Source: a virus (Duplodnaviria; Heunggongvirae; Uroviricota; Caudoviricetes). Taken from it: 64,000 bases of DNA. The stretch covers positions 19,900 to 83,899 of IMG/VR virus record IMGVR_UViG_3300011727_000001; one strand, 5' to 3'. The notes under the pieces were generated by a model. The model worked only from the letters and a program-made list of their open reading frames with translations, made no database searches and was not told the origin of the DNA. Shown in pieces: positions 3,333-43,587 of this stretch. The translations under genes were made by a program, and so were the position numbers. Every line of letters begins with the position of its first letter. The stretch's first letter is position 1.

Positions 3333-4601
3333 TTACAAAGAAATACCGAGAATTTTGATATCGCGAACCGGATATTCGAGATCAGCAAAGTAACCGAACG
3401 CATCCGCGGCGTGTTCGACGCCGGCAGATTTATCAACCTCACGAGTGCCAGGTTTGTAAATTGTCTGCTCCAGGGCGTTGATGAAGTGACGGCATTTGCG
3501 GTTCACGCGTAAACGAACCACTCCCTCCGCTGTCTTCAGAAGACGATTAACCGAGTTAACGCGATCAGCGACGGCCGGATGCTTGCGCTTGAATTTGATA
3601 TTGGTGAAACCAGCCTCTCGAAGAATGTCCAAATCGGACTCCCCTCGCCCATGGGATCGGTTGTTGCCAGCAGGGTCGGGGTAGATCCGGATCTGGTTCA
3701 TCTGGCGATAATAGCGTTTGGCTAATTCATCCGCGGTCTCCTGCGTATTCGAACCAAACAGAACACACTCATCCACGACCCAGATTTCGCCATTCGGTTG
3801 CTCTTGAATAATCACCGATGACATTGGATCGATGTTAAAATCCTGACCGATGTAAATTGGCAAATGTGGATTGAATTCGTAATCACCGACATGAATTTTT
3901 CGATCGAAGGAGTAATAGACGCGACCAGACATCGTTTCAAAGGACGCTTCAAACTCTTGACGGAAGGATTTTTCATCCATATCTCGCCGAGCCTGCTCGA
4001 TCTCCTTTTTAGGAATGAAAGGCGAAGTAATTGTCGGAAACTGCCATGATTTCCAGGCGTTGACGACATTTCGACCTTTCTCATCCTTATAAGTATCGCC
4101 GCGCTGGCCTTCCATGTATTTTTCATAGAGCCAGTTGAACGATTTAGGCGTGCCAATAAATATAACGCGACCACCGGTGGTCGCCAAAGTCGGACGAAGA
4201 ACGGTTTCCCAAGTTTCCTCTTTAACGTCCTGCGCTTCATCAATAACCAGGAAGTTAATACCAACACCGCGGAGTGAATCCGGTTTGTCGGCGCCCTTGA
4301 GCATGATCTTCGATCCATTGATGAGATGGATTGTCATTCGCGTTTCGTTTACGCGTTTAATCCATTTCGCCGGAATAGAGTTCTTCAGATCATCCCAAAG
4401 AATGTCGCGTGCCATCTGATATGTCGGTGCTACATACCAGACTAATTGGTTCTTCTTTTCTGAGGCCGCCTGAATAAGGGCGATCTTACAAACCTGAGTT
4501 TTACCCCAGCGGCGCCCAGCCACAATCACTCGGTATCGACGAGGATCGCGAAGAACACGTTTTTGACCGAGATGAACCTTAAGCTGACCAGGCGCAATCA
4601 T
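3333..4601 (-). CDS. Terminase large subunit
   Basis: 422 aa. Walker A VIVAGRRWGKT near the N-terminus, Walker B-like VIDEAQ, and a C-terminal RNase-H-like nuclease region (GQDFNIDPMS...DPAG). Confidence 0.85.
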   Translation of the reverse strand: MIAPGQLKVHLGQKRVLRDPRRYRVIVAGRRWGKTQVCKIALIQAASEKKNQLVWYVAPTYQMARDILWDDLKNSIPAKWIKRVNETRMTIHLINGSKIMLKGADKPDSLRGVGINFLVIDEAQDVKEETWETVLRPTLATTGGRVIFIGTPKSFNWLYEKYMEGQRGDTYKDEKGRNVVNAWKSWQFPTITSPFIPKKEIEQARRDMDEKSFRQEFEASFETMSGRVYYSFDRKIHVGDYEFNPHLPIYIGQDFNIDPMSSVIIQEQPNGEIWVVDECVLFGSNTQETADELAKRYYRQMNQIRIYPDPAGNNRSHGRGESDLDILREAGFTNIKFKRKHPAVADRVNSVNRLLKTAEGVVRLRVNRKCRHFINALEQTIYKPGTREVDKSAGVEHAADAFGYFADLEYPVRDIKILGISL

Positions 4602-5263
4602 GCTGAAACTCCGGTCAGATCCTGATCGACAGACTTCAGCAACTCCTCGATATCAGTATCTTCATCAAGAGCGCCAATATCGCGATGATGTTGAACGATA
4701 TCTTCCGCGGTAAGATCGATCAGTGGCAGTTCAGGCAGATCCGCGACGTCAACTTCTTCATCAGCTCGCAGAATTTTATGTAGGCGAGCTTCAACGCCTT
4801 CGATCATCGTAAGCTGAAACCGACGAATGGCTTTAAGATCATCATCAATAGCCGCCATAGCGCCGCCAGCTTTGATCTGATCCTGGACAATCTTGGCCGC
4901 GATAGCGGAAGCTTGCTTAATCAGCTGGTAGCCCTGCAGCCGCGTTTCTTCGATCCAGCCTGCCTTCTTAGCCGCAAATGTTTCAGAGCGTGCTGCGGCC
5001 GCCGCTGCTTGATTTAACGCCGCTTGTTGAACAGCACTCTGCACCTCATGAGCACGCGAGCCGCGTTTAATGCCGTGATTTTTAAAACGCTGGGATAGAT
5101 TTTGCCGAGAAACGCCAAATTCGTCAGCGAGTTCGCCAACGCCCTTCGTTCCCAGTTCGTAGCATTCTACGATTTGAGCCCATTCCGCATCTGAAAGACG
5201 GCGGGACTTTTTGTCATCTCCGGACGTGTCCTCATTCAAACCGGAGATATTTTCATCAGACAT
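4598..5263 (-). CDS. Putative terminase small subunit (N-terminal HTH DNA-binding protein)
   Basis: 221 aa. Overlaps the TerL start by 4 nt. HTH-like segment EWAQIVECYELGTKGVGELADEFGVSRQNLSQR. Confidence 0.5.
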   Translation of the reverse strand: MSDENISGLNEDTSGDDKKSRRLSDAEWAQIVECYELGTKGVGELADEFGVSRQNLSQRFKNHGIKRGSRAHEVQSAVQQAALNQAAAAAARSETFAAKKAGWIEETRLQGYQLIKQASAIAAKIVQDQIKAGGAMAAIDDDLKAIRRFQLTMIEGVEARLHKILRADEEVDVADLPELPLIDLTAEDIVQHHRDIGALDEDTDIEELLKSVDQDLTGVSA

Positions 5264-5273
5264 AAACCTATAA

Positions 5274-5304
5274 CCTTAACTAAGCGCTTACTTATAGACT
5301 AGCC
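5274..5304 (-). promoter_or_regulatory. Conserved promoter-like motif upstream of the TerS gene
   Basis: CCTTAACTAAGCGCTTACTTATAGACTAGCC, 11 nt upstream of the start codon. Confidence 0.45.
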
Positions 5305-5329
5305 GGAGAAGCATTCCCTGTCCACTTTC

Positions 5330-5360
5330 TTAATAAGTAATTAATTACTTAATATAATAA
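5330..5360. promoter_or_regulatory. Perfectly palindromic variant of the motif (TAAGTAATTAATTACTTA)
   Basis: 18-bp perfect palindrome read directly; AT-rich surroundings. Confidence 0.4.
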
Positions 5361-5407
5361 CTATAAGATTAGTAAGAGAAAGGATGAGGGAAACTCTCCG
5401 GATCGTC

Positions 5408-5665
5408 TCAAAGACCCCCTACCCTAAACCAGTCATACGCTTTTATTGTCGGTCGAACGATTTTACTCATTCCGGAACGCTCAAGCTCGACGATGCCGCG
5501 TTTTGACAAAAATCTTAATGACGTTCGTAGCGAGCCGTAGGCACATTTGTAAGGAAGCGCCTGATGCAGCTCTGTTATAGTGTAGAAAGATCCGACATCT
5601 GCGGCCTCCAATACCAGAAACATAATTTGGCGCTGTTTATCTGTTCGCTTTGGTTTATACGACAT
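5408..5665 (-). CDS. Small winged-helix DNA-binding protein
   Basis: 85 aa. wHTH-like TITELHQALPYKCAYGSLRTSLRFLSKRGIVE. Overlaps the upstream GNAT gene stop. Confidence 0.35.
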   Translation of the reverse strand: MSYKPKRTDKQRQIMFLVLEAADVGSFYTITELHQALPYKCAYGSLRTSLRFLSKRGIVELERSGMSKIVRPTIKAYDWFRVGGL

Positions 5666-6575
5666 TGAGTTTCAGCCTTTCATTTGGACGCTGAAGATCA
5701 AACTGCGTAATGGGTAAACAATCCGGCACACTGCCTTTAGGATCTGGACATTTCCAAATTCCATACATTGGAGATGCGAGGCTCATCTGCTGGATACCTT
5801 TGATTACCTCAACAGTGGTCATAGCCGCCACGCGCGCTGCGCCTCGCTCGCGATTAGCGCCAGTATTTTCAAGCGCCGAGTTCTTTAGGTAGAAATCCTT
5901 ACAAGCTTGCACCAGCTTTTCAGCCGCCGCCGGGCTTTTACTTTCGATCTCTGATACGATCGCCAAGTAATCCTGCGGTGATGCCTCAAAATGCGAGCGG
6001 AAAAATTTCAGACCGGCTTCAAACTTGTTTGCGTTTCTAGGCTCGACAAAACGAAAGCCGGCCTTCTGTCCGAACAGATTAAACTTGGACATCGACGATT
6101 GAATTTCCATGAAGGTATTACCCTCCATGCGCGATACCAAATTCATCATGCGATAACCGACGCCAATTCCGCGATACATCGTGTCCACGACAAAACGAGA
6201 GATGACGCGAAAATTGGCGTTGATGTAGTTATATCTGTTCGTGTTTGTCAGCCGCGTCTCGCCTGAGCCCGGCGCCAGATTAGGAAACACCATATGGCGC
6301 TCACGCAGCATACCTTTTGGCGAACCAGTGACAATCACGCCGATCGTTTCATCGAATAATCTCAAGCGCCAGTATCGCGGCCCAAACGGAAGAGCTTCGG
6401 CTTTGTAATGAAGATCATGGAGTAGATCCCAATCGGCTTTAGTTCCGCGCTCAACAACCATTTCACGGGCGAGTGCGAAATTCGCTCTAGGGCTGGCATT
6501 ACGCTGAATAAGCGTGTCTGTATCAAAAGCGCTCATAACGCTTACCCTCGCGCTTCTGCGCTCGTTTACGCGCAT
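5655..6575 (-). CDS. GNAT-family acetyltransferase domain protein; true start possibly ATG at 6536
   Basis: GNAT motif A-like VVDTMYRGIGVGYRMMNLV. An internal ATG at 6536 overlaps the stop of the upstream small ORF. Confidence 0.4.
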   Translation of the reverse strand: MRVNERRSARVSVMSAFDTDTLIQRNASPRANFALAREMVVERGTKADWDLLHDLHYKAEALPFGPRYWRLRLFDETIGVIVTGSPKGMLRERHMVFPNLAPGSGETRLTNTNRYNYINANFRVISRFVVDTMYRGIGVGYRMMNLVSRMEGNTFMEIQSSMSKFNLFGQKAGFRFVEPRNANKFEAGLKFFRSHFEASPQDYLAIVSEIESKSPAAAEKLVQACKDFYLKNSALENTGANRERGAARVAAMTTVEVIKGIQQMSLASPMYGIWKCPDPKGSVPDCLPITQFDLQRPNERLKLNVV

Positions 6576-6687
6576 ACCAGTAGACGTGTGCTTTAGTAAT
6601 CAGCAAATGAGTGACGTTCTTCAGCCCGATTGCTAACCAGATCAGTAAGAATACGGTTACGAGAATAGAAAAACCTGTAGGTGTCAT
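6517..6687 (-). CDS. Small membrane peptide (~57 aa, one TM)
   Basis: MTPTGFSILVTVFLLIWLAIGLKN.... Overlaps neighbouring genes at both ends. Below the 60-aa cutoff of the ORF track. Confidence 0.3.
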
Positions 6688-6800
6688 TCGTCATCTCCAT
6701 TTCGCTTCTTCAAAACTTTGAATTCGAGATAAGCGACGAAGAGAATTATACCGACGAACCAAATCGTCAGTTCCTGAATGGCGTAGCTAAAATCGGCCAT
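6684..6800 (-). CDS. Small membrane peptide (~38 aa, one TM)
   Basis: MADFSYAIQELTIWFVGIILFVAYLEFKVLKK. Its start overlaps the stop of the upstream ORF (ATGGCCGATTTTAG). Confidence 0.3.
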   Translation of the reverse strand: MADFSYAIQELTIWFVGIILFVAYLEFKVLKKRNGDDE

Positions 6801-7011
6801 TATATTCTCTCCACCATTTAAGCGTTTTATCGCAGTGGTTATGATCCAGCCGATCAAGAACGTGGCAGAGAACACAACCCCACCGCTTGCGATGACTTCG
6901 AGCCTGCGCGGCGCGATAAGAAACTGTTTCCGTAGGTCGCCCGCCCAAAAGAGAATTTATGAGGATCGACAAAGCGACGCCGATCGTATGTAGGTAGCTA
7001 ATTACGGACAT
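6787..7011 (-). CDS. Small membrane protein (~74 aa)
   Basis: MSVISYLHTIGVALSILINSLLGG..., with a C-terminal CVLCHVLDRLDHNHC segment. Confidence 0.3.
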   Translation of the reverse strand: MSVISYLHTIGVALSILINSLLGGRPTETVSYRAAQARSHRKRWGCVLCHVLDRLDHNHCDKTLKWWREYNGRF

Positions 7012-7105
7012 AGACCAGCTCCTGATGAGCGATAACAGGCGCAACGCCTGAGCAGGTCGAAAGAAATAGCGCAATAGCTAAAGCGCCAAATAGCTTTTTA
7101 GGCAT
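7001..7105 (-). CDS. Small signal-peptide / lipoprotein-like peptide (~34 aa)
   Basis: MPKKLFGALAIALFLSTCSG.... Its ATG overlaps the ABC ATPase stop codon (ATGCCTAA). Confidence 0.25.
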
Positions 7106-7742
7106 TGTGACCTCCGCGCTCAATGTCGACCTTCTCGCGAAATCGCTTTGTGATGGTCAAATCCGGGCCGAGTTCTTCCGCCAAATCTGTGTGAGTTGTG
7201 GCGACCATGAGTGTTTTACCAAGCCGCCGGGCGATCTTTTGGATATTAAAAGCAACGATTTTGGCTGTGACGCGATCCAGAACGGCGCCAAACTCGTCGG
7301 CGATCCAAACATCAGCATCTTGCTCCATGATCTTTGCGAGCTTCAGCCGGTAGCGCTGGCCGTCCGACAACTCGGAAGGCTTGCGAATATAGATCCAGGC
7401 ATCGGAGATACCGGCTTTCGCCAGGAGATCGGTCGCCTCGACGGTGGAATTGCCAACCAGGTCGATTACGGGCTTCTCTTCGAGGACGATTTCACCGAGA
7501 TCTGCAATCTTTTTACCTTCGCTCAGCATTTGGGCTTTTAAATCGCGCAACAATAGCGACTTGCCAGAGCCCGACTGACCGGTGATGTAAACAACGTCGC
7601 CTTGATCGATATTAACCTTCAGGTTGTCGTAAATAACGAACTCTTTATCCGACAAAGCCAAACCAAAGCTCTCACCGATCTCAAGCACGCGCGGTGAGCG
7701 CTCAACATTGGATTTGAATGCGCGAGAGATGGTGTATTCCAT
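7098..7742 (-). CDS. Stand-alone ABC-type ATPase (nucleotide-binding domain only, 214 aa)
   Basis: Walker A GQSGSGKS, signature LSDGQRYRL, Walker B DVWIADE, H-loop TTHTD. No transmembrane domain. Confidence 0.7.
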   Translation of the reverse strand: MEYTISRAFKSNVERSPRVLEIGESFGLALSDKEFVIYDNLKVNIDQGDVVYITGQSGSGKSLLLRDLKAQMLSEGKKIADLGEIVLEEKPVIDLVGNSTVEATDLLAKAGISDAWIYIRKPSELSDGQRYRLKLAKIMEQDADVWIADEFGAVLDRVTAKIVAFNIQKIARRLGKTLMVATTHTDLAEELGPDLTITKRFREKVDIERGGHNA

Positions 7743-8075
7743 TTATTCTTCCATTTGCTCTGTAGTGGCGATATCGGCTAACGCAAGTCTGACGGTCTCC
7801 AGGTATCCAAGCATCATCATCGCTGAAACATCCGGTCTGTCGTCCTCAGGTAGAATTAGCTCCGAGATGAATTTCATTTCTTTCGCGTCCCATCCGAGTA
7901 TTAGACATCCGGTGTAGCGCCCTTCCCTCGCCTCCTTCGCGAACTCCTGAAAGGCGAGGGCGGTATCGACGTCATAGTCGCCCCGCTCTTCTTCAACTGA
8001 CACATCCGGATTAGTCGCCGGCGAAATCTCCTCTCGTGTTGTGATTGAGATTACTTTTCCCGGCGCCTCTTCCAT
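7743..8075 (-). CDS. Hypothetical acidic protein
   Basis: 110 aa; abuts the ABC ATPase start. Confidence 0.35.
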   Translation of the reverse strand: MEEAPGKVISITTREEISPATNPDVSVEEERGDYDVDTALAFQEFAKEAREGRYTGCLILGWDAKEMKFISELILPEDDRPDVSAMMMLGYLETVRLALADIATTEQMEE

Positions 8076-8089
8076 AAGTCACCTCTTAC

Positions 8090-8779
8090 TTATGATCTTT
8101 GATCAATATATGCGACAAAGGCATCCGCACCTTTCTGCCCCGTCTCATCTTCAATACGGGACATGAAATCGCGAATGATGCGTGATTGAGAGATGGATAC
8201 ACGTTTGAAACCGAGCGCATCAGCGACCGGCGCCGCAGTATCATCAACCTCTTCAGTTTTTTGAATATTAGCCTGCTGCTGAGCCTCAACCGCCTCACTA
8301 ATATTTTCTACGAAGAAATCATCATTGATTTCACCGAGGTCTGCAGTTGAAAAATCCAGCTCTTTTTCATCAAAACCAAGCGTGGTCAGATCGATATCTG
8401 TTTCCGCCAACCGGCGCAGTTCGTCTTGAATGAGAGCCATATCGTAAGATTGGCCCGTCACTCGGTTATCTGCCAAACGAAGTGCGTCGGCTTGGTCTTT
8501 GGTTAGGTCAGAACGAACAATAACCGGCACACGTTTACGACCGAGTTTGATGGCGGCCAGACGACGGCCATGACCTGCGATGATCTCGCCGTTTGTCCAA
8601 ATGACAATAGGCTGTGTCCAGCCATAGGTCAGAATAGAGTTTGCCAGTTTCTCGACTTCACCTTCAGGGTGATTTTTCGCATTAAGCGCATATGGAACGA
8701 GCTTATCGACATCCCATAGCTCAATTTTGGGCTGATCACTCATCATAGGTCTTTCTATAAATATCCATAAGTTCTTCAC
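8090..8779 (-). CDS. ParB-like nuclease domain protein 1; start probably at MMSDQ near 8746
   Basis: ParB N-terminal box GHGRRLAA, plus conserved ParB/Srx-like surroundings. Confidence 0.6.
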   Translation of the reverse strand: MKNLWIFIERPMMSDQPKIELWDVDKLVPYALNAKNHPEGEVEKLANSILTYGWTQPIVIWTNGEIIAGHGRRLAAIKLGRKRVPVIVRSDLTKDQADALRLADNRVTGQSYDMALIQDELRRLAETDIDLTTLGFDEKELDFSTADLGEINDDFFVENISEAVEAQQQANIQKTEEVDDTAAPVADALGFKRVSISQSRIIRDFMSRIEDETGQKGADAFVAYIDQRS

Positions 8780-8905: not shown

Positions 8906-9634
8906 TCACTCGGCGATCTCCGCCAATGCCGCATCAAGTTCTTTGTCGGTGATCTGGTCTTGGAGCCCTTTCACATCGAACTGATCAATCAGAAGATGAA
9001 CCAAGGCGTCACCGGCGTTTGTAAGATCATCAGCATCAGTGAAGGATTGGGCTTTTTGCGTTCGAGCGATCAAAGCGGTCAGCCGCTCTGCGTCACGCAG
9101 GGATAGTTTAAAGCGCATTACCGTATGAGTTTTGGGCGCCTTGGCGGCCGGAGGTTCAGGCGCCTCCTCAATCTCCGACGTTTCGAAATTCCCGTCAATT
9201 TCCAGATCGTCGAGCGCTATATTAACACTTGAGAAGATTGTTGTGAGATCCTCGTCCCCATAAGGAAGGAAGCTTTGCAGTTCGTTTGCATCACCCATGC
9301 TTTTAAGAAGTTCGGCAAAGCTCAAGGTGTCATCGGCGCCGTAACGAGCATTATCGAGAACCGAAATCTCTTTGGCGCGCTTATCATCAATCGGCCCCAG
9401 ATTTACGACTGGAATTTCAGAAAGTCCGAGTTTAACGGCTGCCTGCCATCGATGCTCGCCGCCGATAATCTCCAGCACACCATCAACTTCTCGAACAACA
9501 ACAGGCTTGAATAGCCCGTTTCGTTTAATCGACTCCTCAAGTTTCGCTTCATTATCAGGCGACACGAAATTCGTGTTCCAGGAGTTAGCCTGAAGCTTTT
9601 GAGGGGCAATATTGAGCAATTGTGGTTGCGGCAA
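8906..9634 (-). CDS. ParB-like nuclease domain protein 2
   Basis: ParB box GGEHRWQAA. 242 aa. Acidic C-terminal half. Confidence 0.6.
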   Translation of the reverse strand: MPQPQLLNIAPQKLQANSWNTNFVSPDNEAKLEESIKRNGLFKPVVVREVDGVLEIIGGEHRWQAAVKLGLSEIPVVNLGPIDDKRAKEISVLDNARYGADDTLSFAELLKSMGDANELQSFLPYGDEDLTTIFSSVNIALDDLEIDGNFETSEIEEAPEPPAAKAPKTHTVMRFKLSLRDAERLTALIARTQKAQSFTDADDLTNAGDALVHLLIDQFDVKGLQDQITDKELDAALAEIAE

Positions 9635-9703: not shown

Positions 9704-11299
9704 ATGGCTGTTATTCAGCTCGCGCATAACGCAGTCGCAGCAAAACTGGTAAACCCACCGGCCGACGTCGCTCAGATCACCGCAGATCTGCTGTCTTATG
9801 TCGTGGATGGCGCTGATCATTTGTGGTCGGTGAATAGCGGCCGCTGGGATGGAAAGTCCTCTTTTTACGATACGGTCAAACATACCTTCCCGGCTGGGTT
9901 CGTTTATCTTGTCCACGCGGAGCTGAAAAAACGCGGCCATACTGTGCATCTTATCCGCAAGCCTCATCACGAACCTTTGGGGCCGGAGAATCCTATCGTT
10001 GATCAGTTCGGAAATGATGATCCTCGATATGACTATCAGATGCGTGCGCTTAGGCAGGTTGAGAAACACGGCCGCGGAATTATTCAGGTAGCCACCGGTG
10101 GGGGTAAGTCCAAGATCGCAAAGCTGATCATGGCTCGATACCGCCGCATGTCCTTGTTTCTAACAACTCGCGGCATTCTTCTCTATCAAATGGATGATCA
10201 ACTGAAAGAGATCGGTCTTAACACCGGCCAGATTGGCGATGGCGAATTCAAGGTTGTGCGCGGTGTTAACCTTGGAATGGTGCAGACGTTGGTTCAGGCG
10301 TTGGAAGTGCCGGATCTTAATGCAGAGATACGAGCGGTCGTGAAATCAATTCATTTGTCGAAGAACAAGGATGAAAATTTACCGCGTGAACGAATTGTCG
10401 AAATAGCTAAAGAGCGATTTGACGAAAAGACGAAAAAGCGAAATCGCATTCTCAAAGTGCTTGAAATGATTGAGGTTGTAATAGGTGAGGAAGCACATGA
10501 GGCCGGCGGTGAAAGCTATTACAAGATCCTGCAGCACTGTAAGAACGCTTCTATTCGAGTTGCGCTGACCGCCACTCCGTTTATGCGCGATAGCGCCGAA
10601 GATAATATGAGACTGATGGCTGCTTTTGGGCCGAAGCTGATCGTCATCACCGAGGAAATGCTGATCAACCGCGGCATCCTTGCAAAACCGTATTTCAAGT
10701 TTGTTGACTGCGCCCCTCACCCAAAATTGCGACGCACAAGCCCTTGGGAGCGCGCCTATAAGCTCGGCTATATCGATAATGACTTTATGCTGCAGGACGC
10801 ATTGAAGGATGCGCTGAGGGCAAAAAATGTCGGCTTGCCGGTTATGACGCTCTGCGTGCGTAAAGAGCACGGTCAAAAGATCGAGGACTATTACAACGCT
10901 AACGGTTTGCGTGCGAAATTTATCTACGGCGAAAGCAAGATGGAAATTCGCCGGCGTTACATCGACATGCTCGCGACCGGCGAGATCGATGTCCTGATCG
11001 GCACCACTATTCTTGATGTGGGTGTTGACGTGCCAGCTGTCGGATTGGTTCAGCGCCTGGGCGGCTATAAAGCTGAAGTGCAATTGCGCCAACAGATTGG
11101 TCGTGGATTGCGAGCAAAGAAGAATATGCCAAACTATGCCTTCATCGCTGATTACTCCTGCAACATTAACACCACTCTCTCCGACCACGCTCGGCAGCGT
11201 CGATCCATTGTGGAAGCAACTCCGGGTTTCGTTGAAGGCATTCTTCCTAAAGGACAGGATTTTGATTGGTCTATCTTCGAGACAAAGGCGGCCGCATGA
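9704..11299 (+). CDS. SF2 DNA/RNA helicase (DEAH/type III restriction-res-like)
   Basis: Motif I ATGGGKSK, motif II GEEAHE, motif VI QQIGRGLR. 531 aa. Confidence 0.7.
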   Translation: MAVIQLAHNAVAAKLVNPPADVAQITADLLSYVVDGADHLWSVNSGRWDGKSSFYDTVKHTFPAGFVYLVHAELKKRGHTVHLIRKPHHEPLGPENPIVDQFGNDDPRYDYQMRALRQVEKHGRGIIQVATGGGKSKIAKLIMARYRRMSLFLTTRGILLYQMDDQLKEIGLNTGQIGDGEFKVVRGVNLGMVQTLVQALEVPDLNAEIRAVVKSIHLSKNKDENLPRERIVEIAKERFDEKTKKRNRILKVLEMIEVVIGEEAHEAGGESYYKILQHCKNASIRVALTATPFMRDSAEDNMRLMAAFGPKLIVITEEMLINRGILAKPYFKFVDCAPHPKLRRTSPWERAYKLGYIDNDFMLQDALKDALRAKNVGLPVMTLCVRKEHGQKIEDYYNANGLRAKFIYGESKMEIRRRYIDMLATGEIDVLIGTTILDVGVDVPAVGLVQRLGGYKAEVQLRQQIGRGLRAKKNMPNYAFIADYSCNINTTLSDHARQRRSIVEATPGFVEGILPKGQDFDWSIFETKAAA

Positions 11300-12646: not shown

Positions 12647-12668
12647 ACTTTCTTAACCATTATGGTCT

Positions 12669-12708
12669 ATCCGTTTTTAGCTAGAACACGAAATAGCTAA
12701 AAACGGAT
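12669..12708. promoter_or_regulatory. 15-bp perfect inverted repeat (ATCCGTTTTTAGCTA n10 TAGCTAAAAACGGAT) just upstream of the ParA gene; candidate operator or centromere-like site
   Basis: Read directly. Contains the TAGCTAAA element that recurs elsewhere in the window. Confidence 0.5.
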
Positions 12709-12715
12709 ATAGCCA

Positions 12716-13375
12716 ATGAGCGAATTAGTGATCGCGTGCCTATCCCAGAAGGGCGGCGTAGGTAAATCTACCCTCGCTCGTTTGATCGCCAGAACTTATG
12801 CTTCTGCCGGCTGGCGCGTAAAAATAGCTGACTTCAATACCAAACAGCTCACCTCTGTCGATTGGGTGGGCATGAGAATGTCTACCGATATGGTGCCGGA
12901 GATTGCGGCGGAGCCATATACCTCGGTCAAGGGTTTCAAGCGCGAGCCGTTTGATTTGATCGTTGCCGATGGCAAGCCTGATAGTGATAACTCCAGTCTG
13001 GATATCGCTAAGGCCGCGCAGCTGGTGATTATTCCAACCGGTTTGGCTTTGGACGATCTTAAACCCCAAATCCTATTCGCGAACGAACTGGTTTCAAAAG
13101 GCGTTGACCGCAAGCGGATCTTAATCGTCCTGAATAAAATCACCGAAAGCACAACTGCTGTTCAAGAGGCGCGCGAATATCTGCGGTCAGCTGGGTATCA
13201 GATCGCGGAAAACGACCTTACTGCAAAGACCGGCTATCAGATGGCGCAGAATATCGGCCGGTCGGTAGCTGAAACGAATTTCCAATCTCTGAACGAGCGC
13301 GCCGATGAACTGGCCGCAGAAATTGTCCAGAAGATGAACGAATTATCGGAGGCCGCAAATGAGCAAGGCAAGTAA
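12716..13375 (+). CDS. parA: ParA/MinD-family partition ATPase
   Basis: Deviant Walker A LSQKGGVGKST. 219 aa. Confidence 0.8.
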   Translation: MSELVIACLSQKGGVGKSTLARLIARTYASAGWRVKIADFNTKQLTSVDWVGMRMSTDMVPEIAAEPYTSVKGFKREPFDLIVADGKPDSDNSSLDIAKAAQLVIIPTGLALDDLKPQILFANELVSKGVDRKRILIVLNKITESTTAVQEAREYLRSAGYQIAENDLTAKTGYQMAQNIGRSVAETNFQSLNERADELAAEIVQKMNELSEAANEQGK

Positions 13376-13616
13376 TCCAACCAAAGCCCCTGTGCCAAAG
13401 CCAGCCCGTTCGCTCAAAATGAGCTTTATGGGAGCCGCTGTAGCCCCGACAACTCCTGCAAGCAATATGACCGAAAAGCTGAAGGATATGAGCTTTAAAG
13501 TCGATCCGGAGTTTCACCGTCGCTACAAATCAGCGGCGGCGCTTAATGGCGTTCAAATGAAGGATATCCTTGAACAAAGCTTTGAACTCTGGCTGGAAAA
13601 GCAGAATTCAAAATGA
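13359..13616 (+). CDS. ParG-like small DNA-binding partner (putative ribbon-helix-helix C-terminus)
   Basis: 85 aa. Overlaps the ParA stop. Disordered basic N-terminus and structured C-terminus, typical of ParG/RHH centromere-binding proteins. Confidence 0.4.
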   Translation: MSKASNPTKAPVPKPARSLKMSFMGAAVAPTTPASNMTEKLKDMSFKVDPEFHRRYKSAAALNGVQMKDILEQSFELWLEKQNSK

Positions 13617-13730
13617 GGAGGCGCCCGTTACAGGGCGCTTTCGCTTTTTAGCGATAAGGCTAAAGGCCGAAATCGCGAAAACAATCATGGCAATCGAGAA
13701 GATGGCGTGCGTTACAATAACTTCAGTCAT
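13608..13730 (-). CDS. Small TM peptide (~40 aa), translationally coupled to the HslV-like gene
   Basis: MTEVIVTHAIFSIAMIVFAISAFSLIAKKRKR.... Its ATG overlaps the HslV-like stop (TATGACTGA). Confidence 0.3.
   Translation of the reverse strand: MTEVIVTHAIFSIAMIVFAISAFSLIAKKRKRPVTGASSF
13619..13649 (+). terminator. Rho-independent terminator ending the ParA/ParG operon
   Basis: GCGCCC-gttaca-GGGCGC followed by TTTCGCTTTTT. Confidence 0.6.
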
Positions 13731-15788: not shown

Positions 15789-15967
15789 GCAGGAAACAGA
15801 AAGACGCGCCGGAGCTGTATGTGGCTCCGCACAAATACAAACGCGAAACCTTGGCCGCTAGAACGGCGGCCTGGGACACTCTGGATCTGGATGACCTTAA
15901 TCCGCTGGCAGAGATGAATATTCCGATTGGTGTCCTGATTAAGTCCAGCTTTGAAAGGGAGTATTGA
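15785..15967 (+). CDS. Small hypothetical protein
   Basis: 60 aa, start/stop overlaps with neighbours. Confidence 0.3.
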   Translation: MSRKQKDAPELYVAPHKYKRETLAARTAAWDTLDLDDLNPLAEMNIPIGVLIKSSFEREY

Positions 15968-16139
15968 TATGGCTATGACTAATGCAGAAAAGGTGCGCGC
16001 CTATCGCGAACGCCAAAAGATCGCCAAGGGAAGTCCGATCCGGATCAGCCTCACCAAAGGCGAACGCGAAACCCTAATGAGGGCGCTGGAAACCACGGGT
16101 ATGCAGGACAATCCCCTATATGAGCGCCTGAAAGCCTAA
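15951..16139 (+). CDS. Small basic hypothetical protein
   Basis: 62 aa; last gene of the plus-strand island. Confidence 0.3.
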   Translation: MKGSIDMAMTNAEKVRAYRERQKIAKGSPIRISLTKGERETLMRALETTGMQDNPLYERLKA

Positions 16140-16149
16140 CACCCAATTA

Positions 16150-16172
16150 CCCGCTTCGGCGGGTTTCTTTTT
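16150..16172 (+). terminator. Rho-independent terminator
   Basis: CCCGC-ttcg-GCGGG followed by TTTCTTTTT. Confidence 0.7.
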
Positions 16173-16186
16173 GGCTAATCACCACC

Positions 16187-16588
16187 CCATGGCCGCCCCA
16201 AATTTGGACTATAGCCGAGGGAAGGGCGTTCCTCCGCCGGCTCCCATGGCTACACCATGGCGCTTTAGCTAAATGGCTGTAACGCTAAGCCTATAAATAG
16301 CTAAATCGTTACCATGGACACCCTAGGCAACCCACGGGACACCATGGAAAGGGTAGGGGCTAAAATCCCCACAGAAGCCCGTAGACGCGCCCCATGGGGA
16401 AATATAGAACACACTCGCACCCATGGGCTTAAAGCGCCCCTATGCCCCGTTATGTCGATCTGGGGTGGGTTTCTGACCTGTATATGGCGCACCCCGGTTC
16501 CATCCGGCGCCCGCTCCCATGGAGCCCACCGGTTCCAGAAAACCCCATGGGCCGACGTCACCAGGGATCTCCCATGGCAAACCATGGG
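16187..16588. repeat. Array of ~11 irregularly spaced CCATGG iterons, extended consensus (C/A)CCATGG(G/C)
   Basis: Hexamer at about 16187, 16236, 16255, 16312, 16345, 16395, 16425, 16519, 16548, 16572 and 16583. About 0.1 copies expected by chance in 400 bp. Confidence 0.6.
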
Positions 16589-16655
16589 CTGAGACTGGCC
16601 AAAAACAAAGGGTGACCCGTCGATCACCCTTGGTTCATTGAGCTGGACTGATGCT

Positions 16656-17447
16656 TTACGCCGCCAGCACCTCTTCGAGACGACGGGTCTGTGGACTGTC
16701 GATCAGTTCATAGACCGGTGCACGGAACGATCCGGAGTTCTTGACGATGCCCATAGTCTGAAGCGCAGTCATGGTAGAGGATGTCTGCGTAGACATGGTG
16801 CCTGGGTCAACTGTGTGCCGGATCAGAATGGCTTGCATCGCCTTGGACACTTTCACTTTGTCACACACCGCAGCTTTAGCCATCTCCCCTGTGAAGCTTT
16901 CACCTGCTTTGCGGAACGAGAACAAGGATTTGCACACCGCGATATTGACCTTGTTCGTCATTGTCCCGTCGCGCAGGGCCTTCACAATGTCCGCCAGCTT
17001 CTCCACGGCATAGACGTTGTAGCGTGAACCTTCGGATACTGAGCGGTTCACGAATTCAGGCTCGACCTGTGAGGCGATCAGAATTGCCGCTGCAGAAGGC
17101 ATGACCAGTTTCGCCCGTGATTTGTCGAGGTTCTTCTGGATGCGATCATTGTTTGGGTTCTTGGTGCGCTCATAGGCAGCGCGGTCATCAAAACCCTTGG
17201 CAACTTTGTTCGCCATCGCCAAGCGCTCCGCATCCGTGTAACCATCAGCCAATTGGGTGAGGGACTGTTCCGGATCGGTGCTTGTCGGGGCAGGGCCGGC
17301 CGAGACTTGGACTGTTTCCGGTGATTTCGCAGTATCTCCGGTGTCATCTTCAAGTGCCTGAAGCATTGCCAAGTCGTGATCTGTAAGTTCCGCCGCGTTA
17401 ACGGTTACAGGCGTTACTAATGCTTTATTGTTATTCTTGCGAGCCAT
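16656..17447 (-). CDS. Hypothetical protein (263 aa) embedded in the repeat-rich region
   Basis: The only long ORF between 16.2 and 18.7 kb. No motif recognised. Confidence 0.45.
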   Translation of the reverse strand: MARKNNNKALVTPVTVNAAELTDHDLAMLQALEDDTGDTAKSPETVQVSAGPAPTSTDPEQSLTQLADGYTDAERLAMANKVAKGFDDRAAYERTKNPNNDRIQKNLDKSRAKLVMPSAAAILIASQVEPEFVNRSVSEGSRYNVYAVEKLADIVKALRDGTMTNKVNIAVCKSLFSFRKAGESFTGEMAKAAVCDKVKVSKAMQAILIRHTVDPGTMSTQTSSTMTALQTMGIVKNSGSFRAPVYELIDSPQTRRLEEVLAA

Positions 17448-17559
17448 GATTTTTAACTTTCTCTCTTTTATTCGTAAGCGTTATTGCTTTCGATAATTAG
17501 AGAATAGAACGCTAATTCGTGGTTGTCGGCTGGTAAAACGAGGTTTGTTGCTATGGTTA

Positions 17560-18130
17560 TATTATGCGGAACGGCATCGCCGCGTGTGGAGCCGGAAGGT
17601 TCTTTGGTCAGGCCGTGGATTTCCATGGGCGCGCCGCGGCGTTTACGAGCCGGAGAATTCTTACCCTAGGAGGCGCGAAAAACCTCTTTACGAACCGGAG
17701 GATTTTAGCTGACCCTTAATTCGCGTCTCCATACTATGTATATAGTTATTTAAATAACTAATAAGTTACTTACTAAGTTTGGAAAAAAATTAAGGGTCAG
17801 CGTTTTCAAGGGAACTCTCCGGCTCGTATAAAACGTGGCGCGAAAGTTGGTGGGATGTTATATCCGCGGAGGTGCCGTGGTTGTTCCGAGGTCAGACCAT
17901 GGATGCGCCGCGGTGTTTCCTTGGTTGCTCCATGGGTGGATGGGGAAATTTGCTGGGAGATCCCGTTGAACCATGGCGCGGCCCACAATCCACCGCACTT
18001 ACTTCTCACCAACTTCTCACCAGCTTCTCTTTCATTTCCCACGCATATCTCCTTCACTTCTCATCAGCTCTATAACTCACCACACCTACGCAGCTATCTT
18101 CTCTATGGTGCATACGTCTCTACGCCATGG
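17560..18130. repeat. Complex repeat region: direct repeats of TTTACGARCCGGAGRATT (two copies plus one inverted), of CATGG(G)CGCCGCGGYGTTT (two copies), further CCATGG copies, CTTCTCACCA repeated twice, and a ~140-nt pyrimidine-rich tract (17990-18130)
   Basis: All repeats read directly. Candidate origin or regulatory region. Confidence 0.45.
17705..17802 (-). promoter_or_regulatory. Promoter-like motif (CTAATAAGTTACTTACTAAG) plus palindrome TAGTTATTTAAATAACTA, inside a 14-bp inverted repeat (GCTGACCCTTAATT / AATTAAGGGTCAGC)
   Basis: Read directly. Confidence 0.4.
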
Positions 18131-18570
18131 CTCTCTTGCGCTACTGGTCTGTTAGTGTCTTCTATCGCCGGATCGTCATTTAGCTTATTCCGTAAATAGC
18201 TATTTATTGACGTCATAACCCTTATCAGGCCAGTGTTGTGCGTGATCTATGATTATATGATCGCTAATTCGCTCAGATTTGCTCACCTGATAGCGTTTAT
18301 ATGTATTTGCTTATCAGTAATCATCTGGAGAGTGTTTGCGCTCTGGTGAGCTTCTATGCGCTTTTCTATATTCAGCTGATTAGCCTTATAGCGGTTTACA
18401 TATTTCGCTTTTTAGCGATATGGCGGTTTTCATGTAAACTTGCTGCTAACTTAGCGCTAAGGAGTTTCTTATTTGCCATAAGAAGGTCTATATCAATTAG
18501 AACTGTCATTCCGGAACCGTAACGATATCGTTCCATGGGATCGGGCGACCGTGGCTTGACATAATGTAAA

Positions 18571-18606
18571 GGAAAAGCCGAGACGCTTTCAGGAACGTCC
18601 CGGCTT
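18571..18606 (-). terminator. Rho-independent terminator on the minus strand (11-bp stem with one mismatch, U-run on the minus strand)
   Basis: GGAAAAGCCGAGACG...CGTCCCGGCTT. Confidence 0.45.
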
Positions 18607-18721
18607 AGGTTGACGAAGGATAGTGTTTAAGAGCGCTACCTCTTCGTCATTATCGGTGTTGTTCCACTACGCCGAAGAGCAAGGCATAGTTTGCACGACC
18701 GCCGACTGCGCGCTTAACTGA

Positions 18722-19861: not shown

Positions 19862-20112
19862 TATTCGTTCTCCGGAGTGAAAATCGGACTTTCAGTAAAA
19901 TTGGCATCCTGTTCCGCGATACCTGTCGGATCAAAGATGTCACAGAACAAACCAATGGCGTCTTGCACAAATTGAGGCGCTTTCTCCAGGTCGTGAGCCT
20001 GAACGAACCAATCTGTGAAGGCTTTAATTTGCGCAACATCCTCTTTTCCGATTAAGTCACGCACGGCTTTGTAGTGGTCGATCGTCGCCTGGGTTTCTGC
20101 CGATATAGCCAT
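19861..20112 (-). CDS. Hypothetical protein
   Basis: 83 aa, acidic. Confidence 0.35.
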   Translation of the reverse strand: MAISAETQATIDHYKAVRDLIGKEDVAQIKAFTDWFVQAHDLEKAPQFVQDAIGLFCDIFDPTGIAEQDANFTESPIFTPENE

Positions 20113-39361: not shown

Positions 39362-39954
39362 TCTTCTTCCACCGTTTCATCATCGCCGCCTGGATCGAAA
39401 TCGATCAATACTCGCCGCGGTCGGCCGCCTTCACCATATTCGATGTAAACGGGGTATGAACCATCACCATAAAAGGTCGAGATCATCACACCCATACCAT
39501 CGTGTCCGCCATCATGCTGAAAAGATGCGAAACCTTTATCAACCGTAGTTGGTGTGAAGGGATTTGCTGCTTCAAATTCTTTATAAATACGGTCGATCAG
39601 ATCACGTTTGGCGATATTCTCTGGCGTATTCCATTTTTGATGTTCAGGCTGAACACCTTCGATGCGTGGGTTGGCCATCAACCAGTTTCGCCACTCTGTA
39701 TGTTCATGAAGGAAGTTGTCGCGATTGTTAGCCCAGCGCTGAAATTCACGACTGCGGTCATTATATCCGGAGCGCTTAAAGAAGCGATCACAAATGCCAT
39801 GCCAGTTATCGCCCAGATCTTTCGGACGAGCTTCGTTATTATCCTTCAGAACATAGCAGCCATCACCGATCCAGATAGAGCCGGCGTCAACATCAATGGA
39901 ACTTACTTCCAAGAAATTTGGAAATTTTGGATGAGAGTTTTGAACATCAGCCAT
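39358..39954 (-). CDS. Hypothetical protein
   Basis: ~198 aa from MADVQ. Confidence 0.35.
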   Translation of the reverse strand: MADVQNSHPKFPNFLEVSSIDVDAGSIWIGDGCYVLKDNNEARPKDLGDNWHGICDRFFKRSGYNDRSREFQRWANNRDNFLHEHTEWRNWLMANPRIEGVQPEHQKWNTPENIAKRDLIDRIYKEFEAANPFTPTTVDKGFASFQHDGGHDGMGVMISTFYGDGSYPVYIEYGEGGRPRRVLIDFDPGGDDETVEEE

Positions 39955-43044: not shown

Positions 43045-43587
43045 TCAGACGTGTTTCCACGTCGTGCGTTTAATGATGTTACTAAGGGTTGATCGAGCTA
43101 TCCCGAATTGATCCATAAGATCAGGCACACTCTTTGTTTCCGCCAACTTGCGAATTTCGATCACTTGATCGGCAGTAAGTTTGGCGTTTGAATTTTGGGA
43201 GCCTCGGCCGGTCTTAAGACCGTTGCGATGAGCATGGCGCTCGTTATCGCTTCCGGATGACCATTCGAGATTGGTTAGAGCGTTATTCTCTTTGTCGCCG
43301 TCGATATGGTTCACTTGCGGAAGATTACTCGGATTAGGCAGAAAGCGCAGAGCGACCGCTCGGTTCACAAGAACGGACTTTGTAAATCCCATCCAAGTCA
43401 TGTTGAAATAAACACGACCGGATTTCTTGTGAACGCGAACCTTGATTGGGTCATACTGATCTGAAACCAACTCGCCTTTATTCGTAGCCCTGCGGCAGCG
43501 TAAAATGGAGCCATCCTCTTTCGGAACGAGATAGCGATATTTGATCGCGTGAAGAATCCATTTGTCCTTATTAAAACGGCGCGTCAC
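43045..43587 (-). CDS. HNH homing-type endonuclease
   Basis: NHIDGDKENNALTNLEW...RHAHRNG HNH motif, plus a C-terminal HTH-like region. Confidence 0.65.
   Translation of the reverse strand: MTRRFNKDKWILHAIKYRYLVPKEDGSILRCRRATNKGELVSDQYDPIKVRVHKKSGRVYFNMTWMGFTKSVLVNRAVALRFLPNPSNLPQVNHIDGDKENNALTNLEWSSGSDNERHAHRNGLKTGRGSQNSNAKLTADQVIEIRKLAETKSVPDLMDQFGIARSTLSNIIKRTTWKHV

Follow-up and report, generated by a model that had tools for sequence, protein, structure and literature searches.

The centromeres of the plasmid partition systems R1 ParR-parC and pB171 par2 (parC1/parC2) consist of short repeats with a period of about 11 bp that surround the promoter or lie to either side of the operon, and in the type III partition system TubR-tubC a winged-helix protein polymerises on 12-bp repeats. 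In the P1 replicon (incC-repA-incA), the initiator gene is flanked by origin iterons and by a downstream control array, the iterons being 19-bp direct repeats for Rep monomers with two winged-helix domains, and DnaA boxes are present. ArsR/SmtB repressors are dimeric winged-helix proteins of about 100 amino acids (aa) that read palindromic DNA at one or two 12-2-12 operators overlapping a promoter, and the winged-helix proteins of the P2 Cox and lambda Xis type (70–90 aa), which act in integrating phages at attP or at promoters, assemble into filaments on phased boxes and so wrap or coat the DNA, with a regulatory output. Here, we describe a locus with traits of several of these systems in 64,000 nucleotides (nt) of viral DNA (Caudoviricetes; IMG/VR record IMGVR_UViG_3300011727_000001, positions 19,900 to 83,899; hereafter the window, numbered from its first letter), in which arrays of a 6-bp box lie on both sides of the gene for a 263-aa winged-helix protein.

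The window is part of a rhizobial phage-plasmid of about 110 kb that belongs to the RHEph10/pLM21S1/B1VFA lineage. Its cluster of CCATGG boxes is real and conserved, and by analogy the anatomy of the arrays appears closer to centromere and operator arrays (R1 parC, pB171 parC1/parC2, tubC, R388 StbA-stbS) than to origin iterons; we do not assign the array system to the iteron-origin, centromere or ArsR-operator family. The best explanation, to which we give about an even chance, is that the boxes offer the adjoining winged-helix protein a platform of many binding sites in helical phase.

Phased CCNNGG boxes in the two gaps flanking the winged-helix gene

Eleven exact CCATGG boxes lie within 401 bp downstream of the gene (16187–16587), starting at positions 16187, 16244, 16255, 16312, 16342, 16392, 16421, 16517, 16545, 16572 and 16582, against about 0.07 expected. 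The first-pass annotation of this DNA had reported such a cluster with about 0.1 copies expected by chance and further copies up to 18.5 kb, and both statements hold, with six more boxes at 17623, 17897, 17930, 17971, 18125 and 18533 (span 17623–18538). The 64-kb window contains 25 CCATGG versus 11.56 ± 2.95 in dinucleotide-preserving shuffles; since the remaining eight copies are scattered outside 16.1–18.6 kb, there is no general enrichment in the window. The spacing is irregular as described, the start-to-start distances in the array being 10–96 bp and not 11–94 bp. Of the consensus (C/A)CCATGG(G/C), the hexamer stands and the 3′ (G/C) proved too strict, with A as the 3′ flanking base at three sites; no extended motif was found around CCATGG, its flanks past the hexamer being weakly biased and none strongly conserved. 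The proposed borders of the array, a plus-strand terminator and the 263-aa open reading frame (ORF) at 16656–17447, were both recovered, and the view that the ORFs at 16301–16627 are artefacts agrees with the lack of conserved counterparts in relatives.

The actual repeat unit is a CCNNGG box every 10–11 bp, not CCATGG alone. Degenerate CCNNGG boxes, unremarked in the first-pass annotation, fill the spaces between the CCATGG copies at this period. In the downstream array, where they start at 16215, 16322, 16332, 16492 and 16561, a run of four boxes (CCATGG, CCTAGG, CCACGG and CCATGG at 16312, 16322, 16332 and 16342; 16312–16347) has a 10-bp period, and a run of three (CCAGGG, CCATGG and CCATGG at 16561, 16572 and 16582; 16561–16587) is spaced by 11 and 10 bp. 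Upstream of the gene, a gene-proximal group (17613–17670) comprises CCGTGG, CCATGG and CCGCGG at 17613, 17623 and 17634 (10–11 bp apart) together with CCTAGG at 17665, and a distal group (17864–17976) comprises seven CCNNGG boxes with an exact 11-bp period (17864–17935) together with CCATGG at 17971. The short tandem repeats at about one helical turn (10–12 bp) are clustered, in runs of 3, 4, 3 and 7. Within the window, runs of at least three boxes at 10–11 bp are confined to the two gene-free gaps that flank the 263-aa gene. Control spacings gave at most one run each, and runs appeared solely at 9–10 and 11–12 bp, which share a value with 10–11 bp; in Markov simulations of both gaps, a phased run of at least three boxes arose in 2 of 2000 trials. 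The two gaps together hold 17 exact and about 15 degenerate 6-bp boxes across about 2.4 kb. Because the boxes are spaced by one helical turn, they would be located on the same face of the DNA, an arrangement as for proteins binding side by side. CCATGG is the strongest form of the box in the window, and CCTAGG substitutes for it in some lineages. Tandem Repeats Finder misses the box arrays because their spacers differ; its single find was ACTTCTCACCA in 2.6 copies.

On the downstream side, the plus-strand intrinsic terminator (16149–16172; stem 16149–16164 plus a T-run) ends a block of small genes, and a second intrinsic terminator on the minus strand (16608–16631) ends the winged-helix gene, so that the array sits between convergent terminators in a stretch of about 435 bp. 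No sigma-70-like promoter was found within this stretch, and no AT-rich unwinding element in the 16187–16587 array. A transfer RNA scan of the region gave no hit, and an Rfam scan gave one sub-threshold match (mir-35, E = 0.11) outside both gaps.

The gap upstream of the gene (17448–18721) is a gene-free region of 1.27 kb with six CCATGG, nine other CCNNGG and other repeat families, and all relatives have a gene-free gap of 1.2–1.9 kb upstream of the homologue. No conserved ORF was found in the 1.27-kb gap, and its conservation is at the DNA level only, because matches fall in several frames and on both strands. An AT-rich core (17700–17801; 83% A+T over 60 bp) lies about 300–380 nt upstream of the gene, a position conserved in relatives, and is bracketed by a perfect 14-nt inverted repeat (17708–17721 and 17788–17801) and also by 31-nt arms (17630–17660 and 17812–17842). 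This AT-rich segment may act as the core of a promoter or in unwinding. The succession of boxes, AT-rich core and boxes (17613–17976) has an origin-like layout, and the gene-proximal group is located just upstream of a promoter-like site (17590–17561). Sites for DnaA, CtrA and IHF and GANTC sites were absent from both gaps.

Several other repeats were observed in the upstream gap. A GAGCCGGAGAATTC-like repeat occurs in three direct copies and one inverted copy (17589–17704, 17812–17825) flanking the AT-rich core, ACTTCTCACCA is found three times at 18001–18069, and two inverted GTTTACAT copies start at 18394 and 18436; B1VFA has a different distal repeat, CCTTTACA, in seven copies, and locus L034 has GGTTTACA. 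The 18-mer GCTTTTTAGCGATA(A/T)GGC appears twice (13643–13660 and 18407–18424) versus 0.11 expected, one copy just past the stop codon of a ParG-like gene and the other within a 32-nt tandem repeat (18363–18426) in the distal part of the gap.

Conservation of the boxes and an invariant core in relatives

No close DNA match to the window was found in phage and plasmid collections. Homologues of the 263-aa protein are encoded by the Rhizobium phages B1VFA, V1VFA-S, RHEph10 and the RHph series (33–47% identity), by plasmids of about 115–119 kb in Shinella, Methylobacterium, Sinorhizobium (pLM21S1), Rhizobium and Pararhizobium, and by contigs of about 110–118 kb from isolates and metagenomes. Analysis of the gene flanks at 37 loci revealed 350 CCATGG or CCTAGG versus 33.4 expected, with an at least 4-fold enrichment in 31 loci and at least one phased run in 25; the window is the most enriched of all (23-fold for CCWWGG). 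CCATGG clusters flank the gene on both sides in most relatives, and a de novo ranking of hexamers in the flanks placed CCATGG at or near the top. In B1VFA, CCATGG is replaced by CCTAGG, and CCAAGG or CCACGG contribute elsewhere. In the common layout, two groups of phased boxes (about −570 to −420 and about −270 to −170) enclose a 60-bp A+T maximum (about −300 to −380) ahead of the gene, and a phased run follows behind it at +59 to +180. The boxes of all relatives have their centre at the winged-helix gene and not at the parA and parG genes discussed below.

The first-pass annotation had proposed counting CCATGG across a whole genome, and in a complete Shinella phage-plasmid of 117 kb the density is not uniform. 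The total is ordinary (32 versus 27.6 expected), and about one third of the CCATGG, 7–8 of the 9 CCTAGG and both phased runs are found at the winged-helix locus, to which the clustering is confined.

Within the downstream array, an invariant core was identified on the minus strand at 16514–16534 (AACCGGTGGGCTCCATGGGAG within GGAACCGGTGGGnTCCAnGG, 20 nt). GGAACCGGTGGGnTCCAnGG does not vary among 12 copies taken from diverged genomes, the surrounding intergenic DNA being otherwise unalignable, and it always has the orientation of the winged-helix gene, about 80–130 nt beyond its stop codon. Further copies occur at loci L019, L022, L023, L028 and L037, and B1VFA has a CCTAGG-type variant, GGGGAAC-N10-CCTAGGGG, at the position of the core. 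A conserved box pair, CCNNGG-GGAA-CCANGG, usually precedes the core and corresponds to the run at 16561–16587 in the window, and several genomes have a second core copy 0.8–1.3 kb further on. The core holds an interrupted palindrome (GGCTCC-ATG-GGAGCC) and can also be read as a phased pair of boxes, CCGGTG and CCATGG, with a spacing of 10 bp; it is therefore a plausible high-affinity nucleation site. The core was also considered as a promoter of the extracytoplasmic function type, with GGAAC as the −35 element, and this was rejected, as no conserved −10 element follows and each genome has one or two copies.

In relatives, two small genes separate two downstream box clusters. Remnants of these genes were not detected in the window by tblastn, and because the intervening genes are missing from the window, its dense 11-site array probably arose by the merging of the two clusters.

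The winged-helix protein, its neighbours and other candidate readers

The winged-helix gene (16656–17447, minus strand) is monocistronic between terminators. Its product was predicted to have a basic tip and a disordered acidic linker at the N-terminus (residues 1–60), a helical domain (residues 63–160) and, at the C-terminus (about 166–262), an ArsR/SmtB/TubR-like winged helix with the recognition helix T-Q-T-S-S-T-M; pLDDT (predicted local distance difference test) exceeds 90 over residues 60–263. The modelled order of elements, alpha1-alpha2-alpha3-alphaR-beta-beta-alpha5, is that of ArsR/SmtB proteins, and the best structural matches were SqrR, CzrA, HlyU, BigR and NolR. TubR chains were among the weak Foldseek matches (6aht and 3m8e; E 0.45–1.3). 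The protein had no match in Pfam, including the known Rep or initiator families with two winged-helix domains, in NCBIfam or among PDB sequences, and the family profile found nothing but spurious cytochrome b562 fusion matches among PDB sequences. Structure searches returned single generic winged-helix matches, with no two-domain match of the RepE, RepA or Pi type in the top lists. The family comprises at least 338 cluster representatives. Its recognition helix is nearly invariant, and this fits a near-invariant DNA target. In relatives, the neighbours of the gene encode small proteins without family assignment.

Three observations were made on individual family members. In Agrobacterium vitis pAvCG78b (L015, 265,376–265,807) and two sister plasmids (370-kb, conjugative), a 143-aa ORF matches residues 40–158 alone, so the N-terminal helical domain also exists on its own. 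In RHEph10 (JX483881.1; L003), the translation of coding sequence gp142 (4805–5695) lacks the conserved C-terminal half of the family and the tblastn matches lie in another frame (5001–5576), which suggests a frameshift or mis-annotation in the record. The Methylobacterium plasmids NZ_CP090351.1 and NZ_CP006993.1 each match the winged-helix protein in two places, suggesting that these two phage-plasmids carry paralogues.

The nearest nucleoside triphosphatase (NTPase) module, 2.6–3.3 kb from the array and the winged-helix gene, is a small, type Ib-like ParA (12716–13375) with a ParG-like ribbon-helix-helix protein whose gene (13359–13616) overlaps parA. Directly upstream of parA, a perfect 16-nt inverted repeat (12668–12709; TATCCGTTTTTAGCTA and TAGCTAAAAACGGATA), TAGCTA-based and without CCNNGG, is a candidate par operator or centromere. 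The corresponding repeats of relatives are all TAGCTA- or TAGCGA-based and vary with the type of the ParG beta-strand, whereas the CCATGG arrays do not follow it: the window (strand SFKVD) and locus L007 (TFNMP) both retain them. ParG was therefore rejected as the reader of CCNNGG. These comparisons, and the central place of the winged-helix gene among the boxes everywhere, assign the TAGCTA-type motif to ParG and CCNNGG to the winged-helix protein.

A further motif, TTTAGCTA, which is often the palindrome TTTAGCTAAA, has 14 copies in the window versus about 1.2 expected (6784, 7075, 10404, 12676/12694, 14463/14465, 16264/16266, 16298, 19518/19520, 20623 and 58184). The copies are mostly intergenic, in the maintenance and early region at 6.7–20.6 kb, and two are located inside the CCATGG array. 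Since the arms of the inverted repeat that precedes parA match TTTAGCTA, this dispersed motif may be an operator or a binding site for ParG.

In addition to parA and parG, the window encodes the large terminase subunit, two ParB_N-domain proteins, a superfamily 2 (SF2) helicase, a deoxynucleoside monophosphate kinase, an HslV-like peptidase, NadV/NadM, ribonucleotide reductase and SbcCD-like proteins. The two ParB_N-domain genes (8090–8779 and 8906–9634, minus strand) are in tandem and divergent from the SF2 helicase gene (9704–11299, plus strand); this point is the main transcription divergence of the genome, conserved in all relatives, and the CCATGG array is found at the matching convergence point. 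The record of a 117-kb Shinella zoogloeoides plasmid (NZ_CP132310.1; L016) begins at the start codon of the winged-helix gene, which may reflect automatic start-gene rotation and carries no functional weight. In the literature, members of the lineage are plasmid-like prophages that replicate by a RepC-type system and carry a partition module (PMC4447125, PMC5537653, PMC12509600), RepC being the plasmid replication module (PMC4447125, PMC12509600). RepC is located 52 kb from the winged-helix gene in B1VFA and approximately opposite to it on the circle of the Shinella plasmid, and the winged-helix locus is therefore not the RepC replicon.

A proposed binding platform and its alternatives

If the boxes are a platform for the winged-helix protein, each palindromic box would be read by one dimer, and adjacent dimers, a DNA turn apart, would line up along the same face of the helix. 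Nucleation would probably take place at the invariant core and the neighbouring box pair, and the outcome would be a higher-order nucleoprotein complex to either side of the gene that encodes the protein, with a transcriptionally silent platform on the downstream side. Since the two upstream box groups bracket the AT-rich promoter-like core, the complex would also autoregulate the gene. The boxes, their phasing, their conservation and confinement to the locus, and the fold of the protein are shown by the analysis; we infer the binding by this protein, its cooperativity and its function. Comparison of the loci, in which the boxes, their helical phasing and their position around the winged-helix gene are conserved in dozens of diverged relatives, supports the array of binding sites for a phage protein that the first-pass annotation had suggested. 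The output of the system may be plasmid-prophage maintenance, copy control, silencing or a genome-end function.

Several points weigh against this platform. The pairing of protein and boxes rests on adjacency and fold, and three of the 37 loci (L034, L039 and L054) have the winged-helix gene without CCWWGG palindromes. The recognition-helix variants T-Q-K (B1VFA) and T-Q-R (L041), with a basic residue after Q, co-occur with CCTAGG, an apparently positive covariation of helix and box that is contradicted by the metagenomic loci L065–L067 and L075, which pair the standard helix with 12–15 CCTAGG. A 62-aa ORF (15951–16139), which adjoins the array and has a weak PHROG regulator match, could be an alternative reader of the boxes. 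No motor NTPase adjoins the winged-helix gene and ParA already has ParG, so a strict centromere reading is weakened. In most relatives, moreover, a terminator-like hairpin follows the core, which leaves room for a role at the RNA level.

The first-pass annotation had also named a replication origin, which is unsupported for the array: it consists of 6-bp palindromes, has neither an AT-rich region nor DnaA boxes, is located at a transcription convergence point, and is accompanied by no known initiator family, RepC being distant. A wider version, in which the winged-helix protein is a dedicated initiator, for example for lytic replication by the phage DnaE, a DnaB-like helicase and primase, would place the origin in the upstream gap and make the downstream 11-box array a control locus of the P1 incA kind that titrates or handcuffs the initiator. 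We consider this version unlikely, although it agrees with a gene flanked by two arrays as in P1 incC-repA-incA, with the 83% A+T core and its inverted repeats between phased box groups at a conserved distance, with a non-coding region that is unusually long, conserved in size and rich in repeat families, and with a lineage that carries its own replisome and no annotated initiator besides RepC. Opposed to it are the short boxes themselves, palindromes at one-turn spacing (irregular elsewhere) without conserved flanks where direct iterons of 17–22 bp, usually about two helical turns apart, would be expected, the absence from both gaps of the DnaA, CtrA, IHF and GANTC sites, the lack of a Rep-family match in Pfam or of a two-domain initiator in the top structure lists, and the RepC replication module about 52 kb away (PMC4447125, PMC12509600). 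It is very unlikely that the boxes are the centromere of the ParA/ParG-like pair, bound by the ribbon-helix-helix protein (13359–13616) and segregated by ParA. Such a pair does lie nearby, short palindromic boxes at helical spacing would suit ribbon-helix-helix dimers, and two copies of the candidate ParG motif TTTAGCTA are inside the array; the boxes, however, are not repeats adjoining parA-parG and read by the ribbon-helix-helix protein, as in a parH-like centromere of type Ib ParA/ParG systems, and the TAGCTA-based repeat upstream of parA, its variation with the ParG strand type and the centring of the boxes on the winged-helix gene all speak for separate targets.

A further explanation concerns the ends of the packaged genome. 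Fixed ends are reported for B1VFA (terminal repeat 3,605 bp) and V1VFA-S (3,939 bp), and the announcement text gives no position for the repeats (PMC12509600). The box-bearing locus of about 3.5 kb (about 14.4–14.7 to 18.0–18.1 kb) might be this direct terminal repeat in the packaged linear DNA. The protein bound to the boxes would then form a genome-end complex, entering the cell first and present in two copies, that could act in recognition by terminase and formation of the ends, protect them, bring about circularisation to the plasmid, or pause injection as in T5. We assembled the B1VFA and V1VFA-S genomes from fetched pieces and mapped every 3,605-nt interval of B1VFA onto V1VFA-S. The sole match genome-wide within ±1 nt of 3,939 had starts at 39,639–39,809 and ends at 43,243–43,413 (B1VFA, MT770738.1; L001 about 4105–7879), and it spans the upstream gap with the gene-proximal boxes, the gene and both downstream clusters to just past a 199-aa gene; a long non-coding stretch with many direct and inverted repeats within a terminal repeat would also recall the first-step-transfer boundary of T5. 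The proposal is nevertheless improbable, as no interval gives the exact difference of +334 (the best gives +335), two other regions are 7–32 nt off, the V1VFA-S repeat size is a coverage estimate, the predicted boundary zones have no common motif, the terminase gene is about 12 kb distant, and the hypothesis was formed post hoc after a local indel had been seen. We find it highly improbable that there is no protein-binding array at all and that the signal is a small RNA or 3′ untranslated element, or a CCWWGG methylation or restriction target (NcoI/AvrII/StyI-type) acting as a switch or decoy. The hairpin directly behind the core of most relatives is strong and variable in sequence and, read in the direction of the gene, ends in a T-rich tail, the core palindrome shows one symmetric compensatory change (C:G to G:C), and lineages differ in which of two restriction-type palindromes serves as the box. 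Yet the core copy of the window has no significant structure (z = −0.3), nothing was found in Rfam, no DNA methyltransferase was found in the related pLM21S1 (PMC5537653), and the exact 10–11-bp phasing, with seven degenerate boxes in a row, is a signal on one DNA face that is unexpected for RNA or enzyme targets.

Returning to the described systems, the locus resembles the R1 and pB171 par loci in its short boxes at one-turn spacing, in two box groups that bracket an AT-rich promoter-like core, in a further array downstream of the gene, in the expected autoregulation and in the large, low-copy plasmid. It differs in that the candidate binder is a 263-aa winged-helix protein and not a small ribbon-helix-helix protein, the operon has no ParM or ParA motor, and the boxes are palindromes instead of direct repeats, with partly irregular spacing in the 11-box array. 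With TubR-tubC it shares the ArsR-like winged-helix topology, arrays of short repeats in two clusters, and large plasmids and phages as hosts; the structural likeness, given the weak TubR matches, goes no further than the generic fold, the protein has 2.5 times the size of TubR and carries a helical domain and an acidic tail in addition, and no TubZ-like GTPase is nearby, the monocistronic gene having neither a cognate TubZ nor ParM in its operon. Like P1, it is a phage-plasmid with separate replication modules, an upstream array by an AT-rich region and a larger non-coding downstream array; the long direct iterons, two-winged-helix Rep protein and DnaA boxes of P1 were not found here. ArsR/SmtB repressors provide the best structural matches and the precedent of a dimeric winged helix on palindromic DNA, but in place of one or two imperfect 12-2-12 inverted repeats overlapping a promoter the locus has 17 exact boxes, 11 of them in a promoter-less gap. 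The Cox and Xis-type proteins are alike in the winged-helix fold and in several short boxes in helical register; they are far smaller and act in integrating phages, whereas the boxes here are palindromic and an integrase has been reported absent from the lineage (PMC4447125).

The lineage is widespread as replicons of about 110–120 kb in Rhizobium, Sinorhizobium, Shinella, Mesorhizobium, Methylobacterium, Phyllobacterium and Ancylobacter. For these RHEph10/pLM21S1/B1VFA phage-plasmids, we define a conserved, locus-specific cis element, phased CCWWGG boxes with an invariant 20-nt core, paired with an uncharacterised winged-helix family. Since this pair is separate from RepC and from ParA/ParG, it gives experiments a concrete starting point on a third module, for maintenance or regulation. 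If the link to the terminal repeat is true, the box module would locate the genome ends of the lineage and would represent an undescribed cis/trans module that links packaging ends to plasmid establishment in a phage-plasmid.

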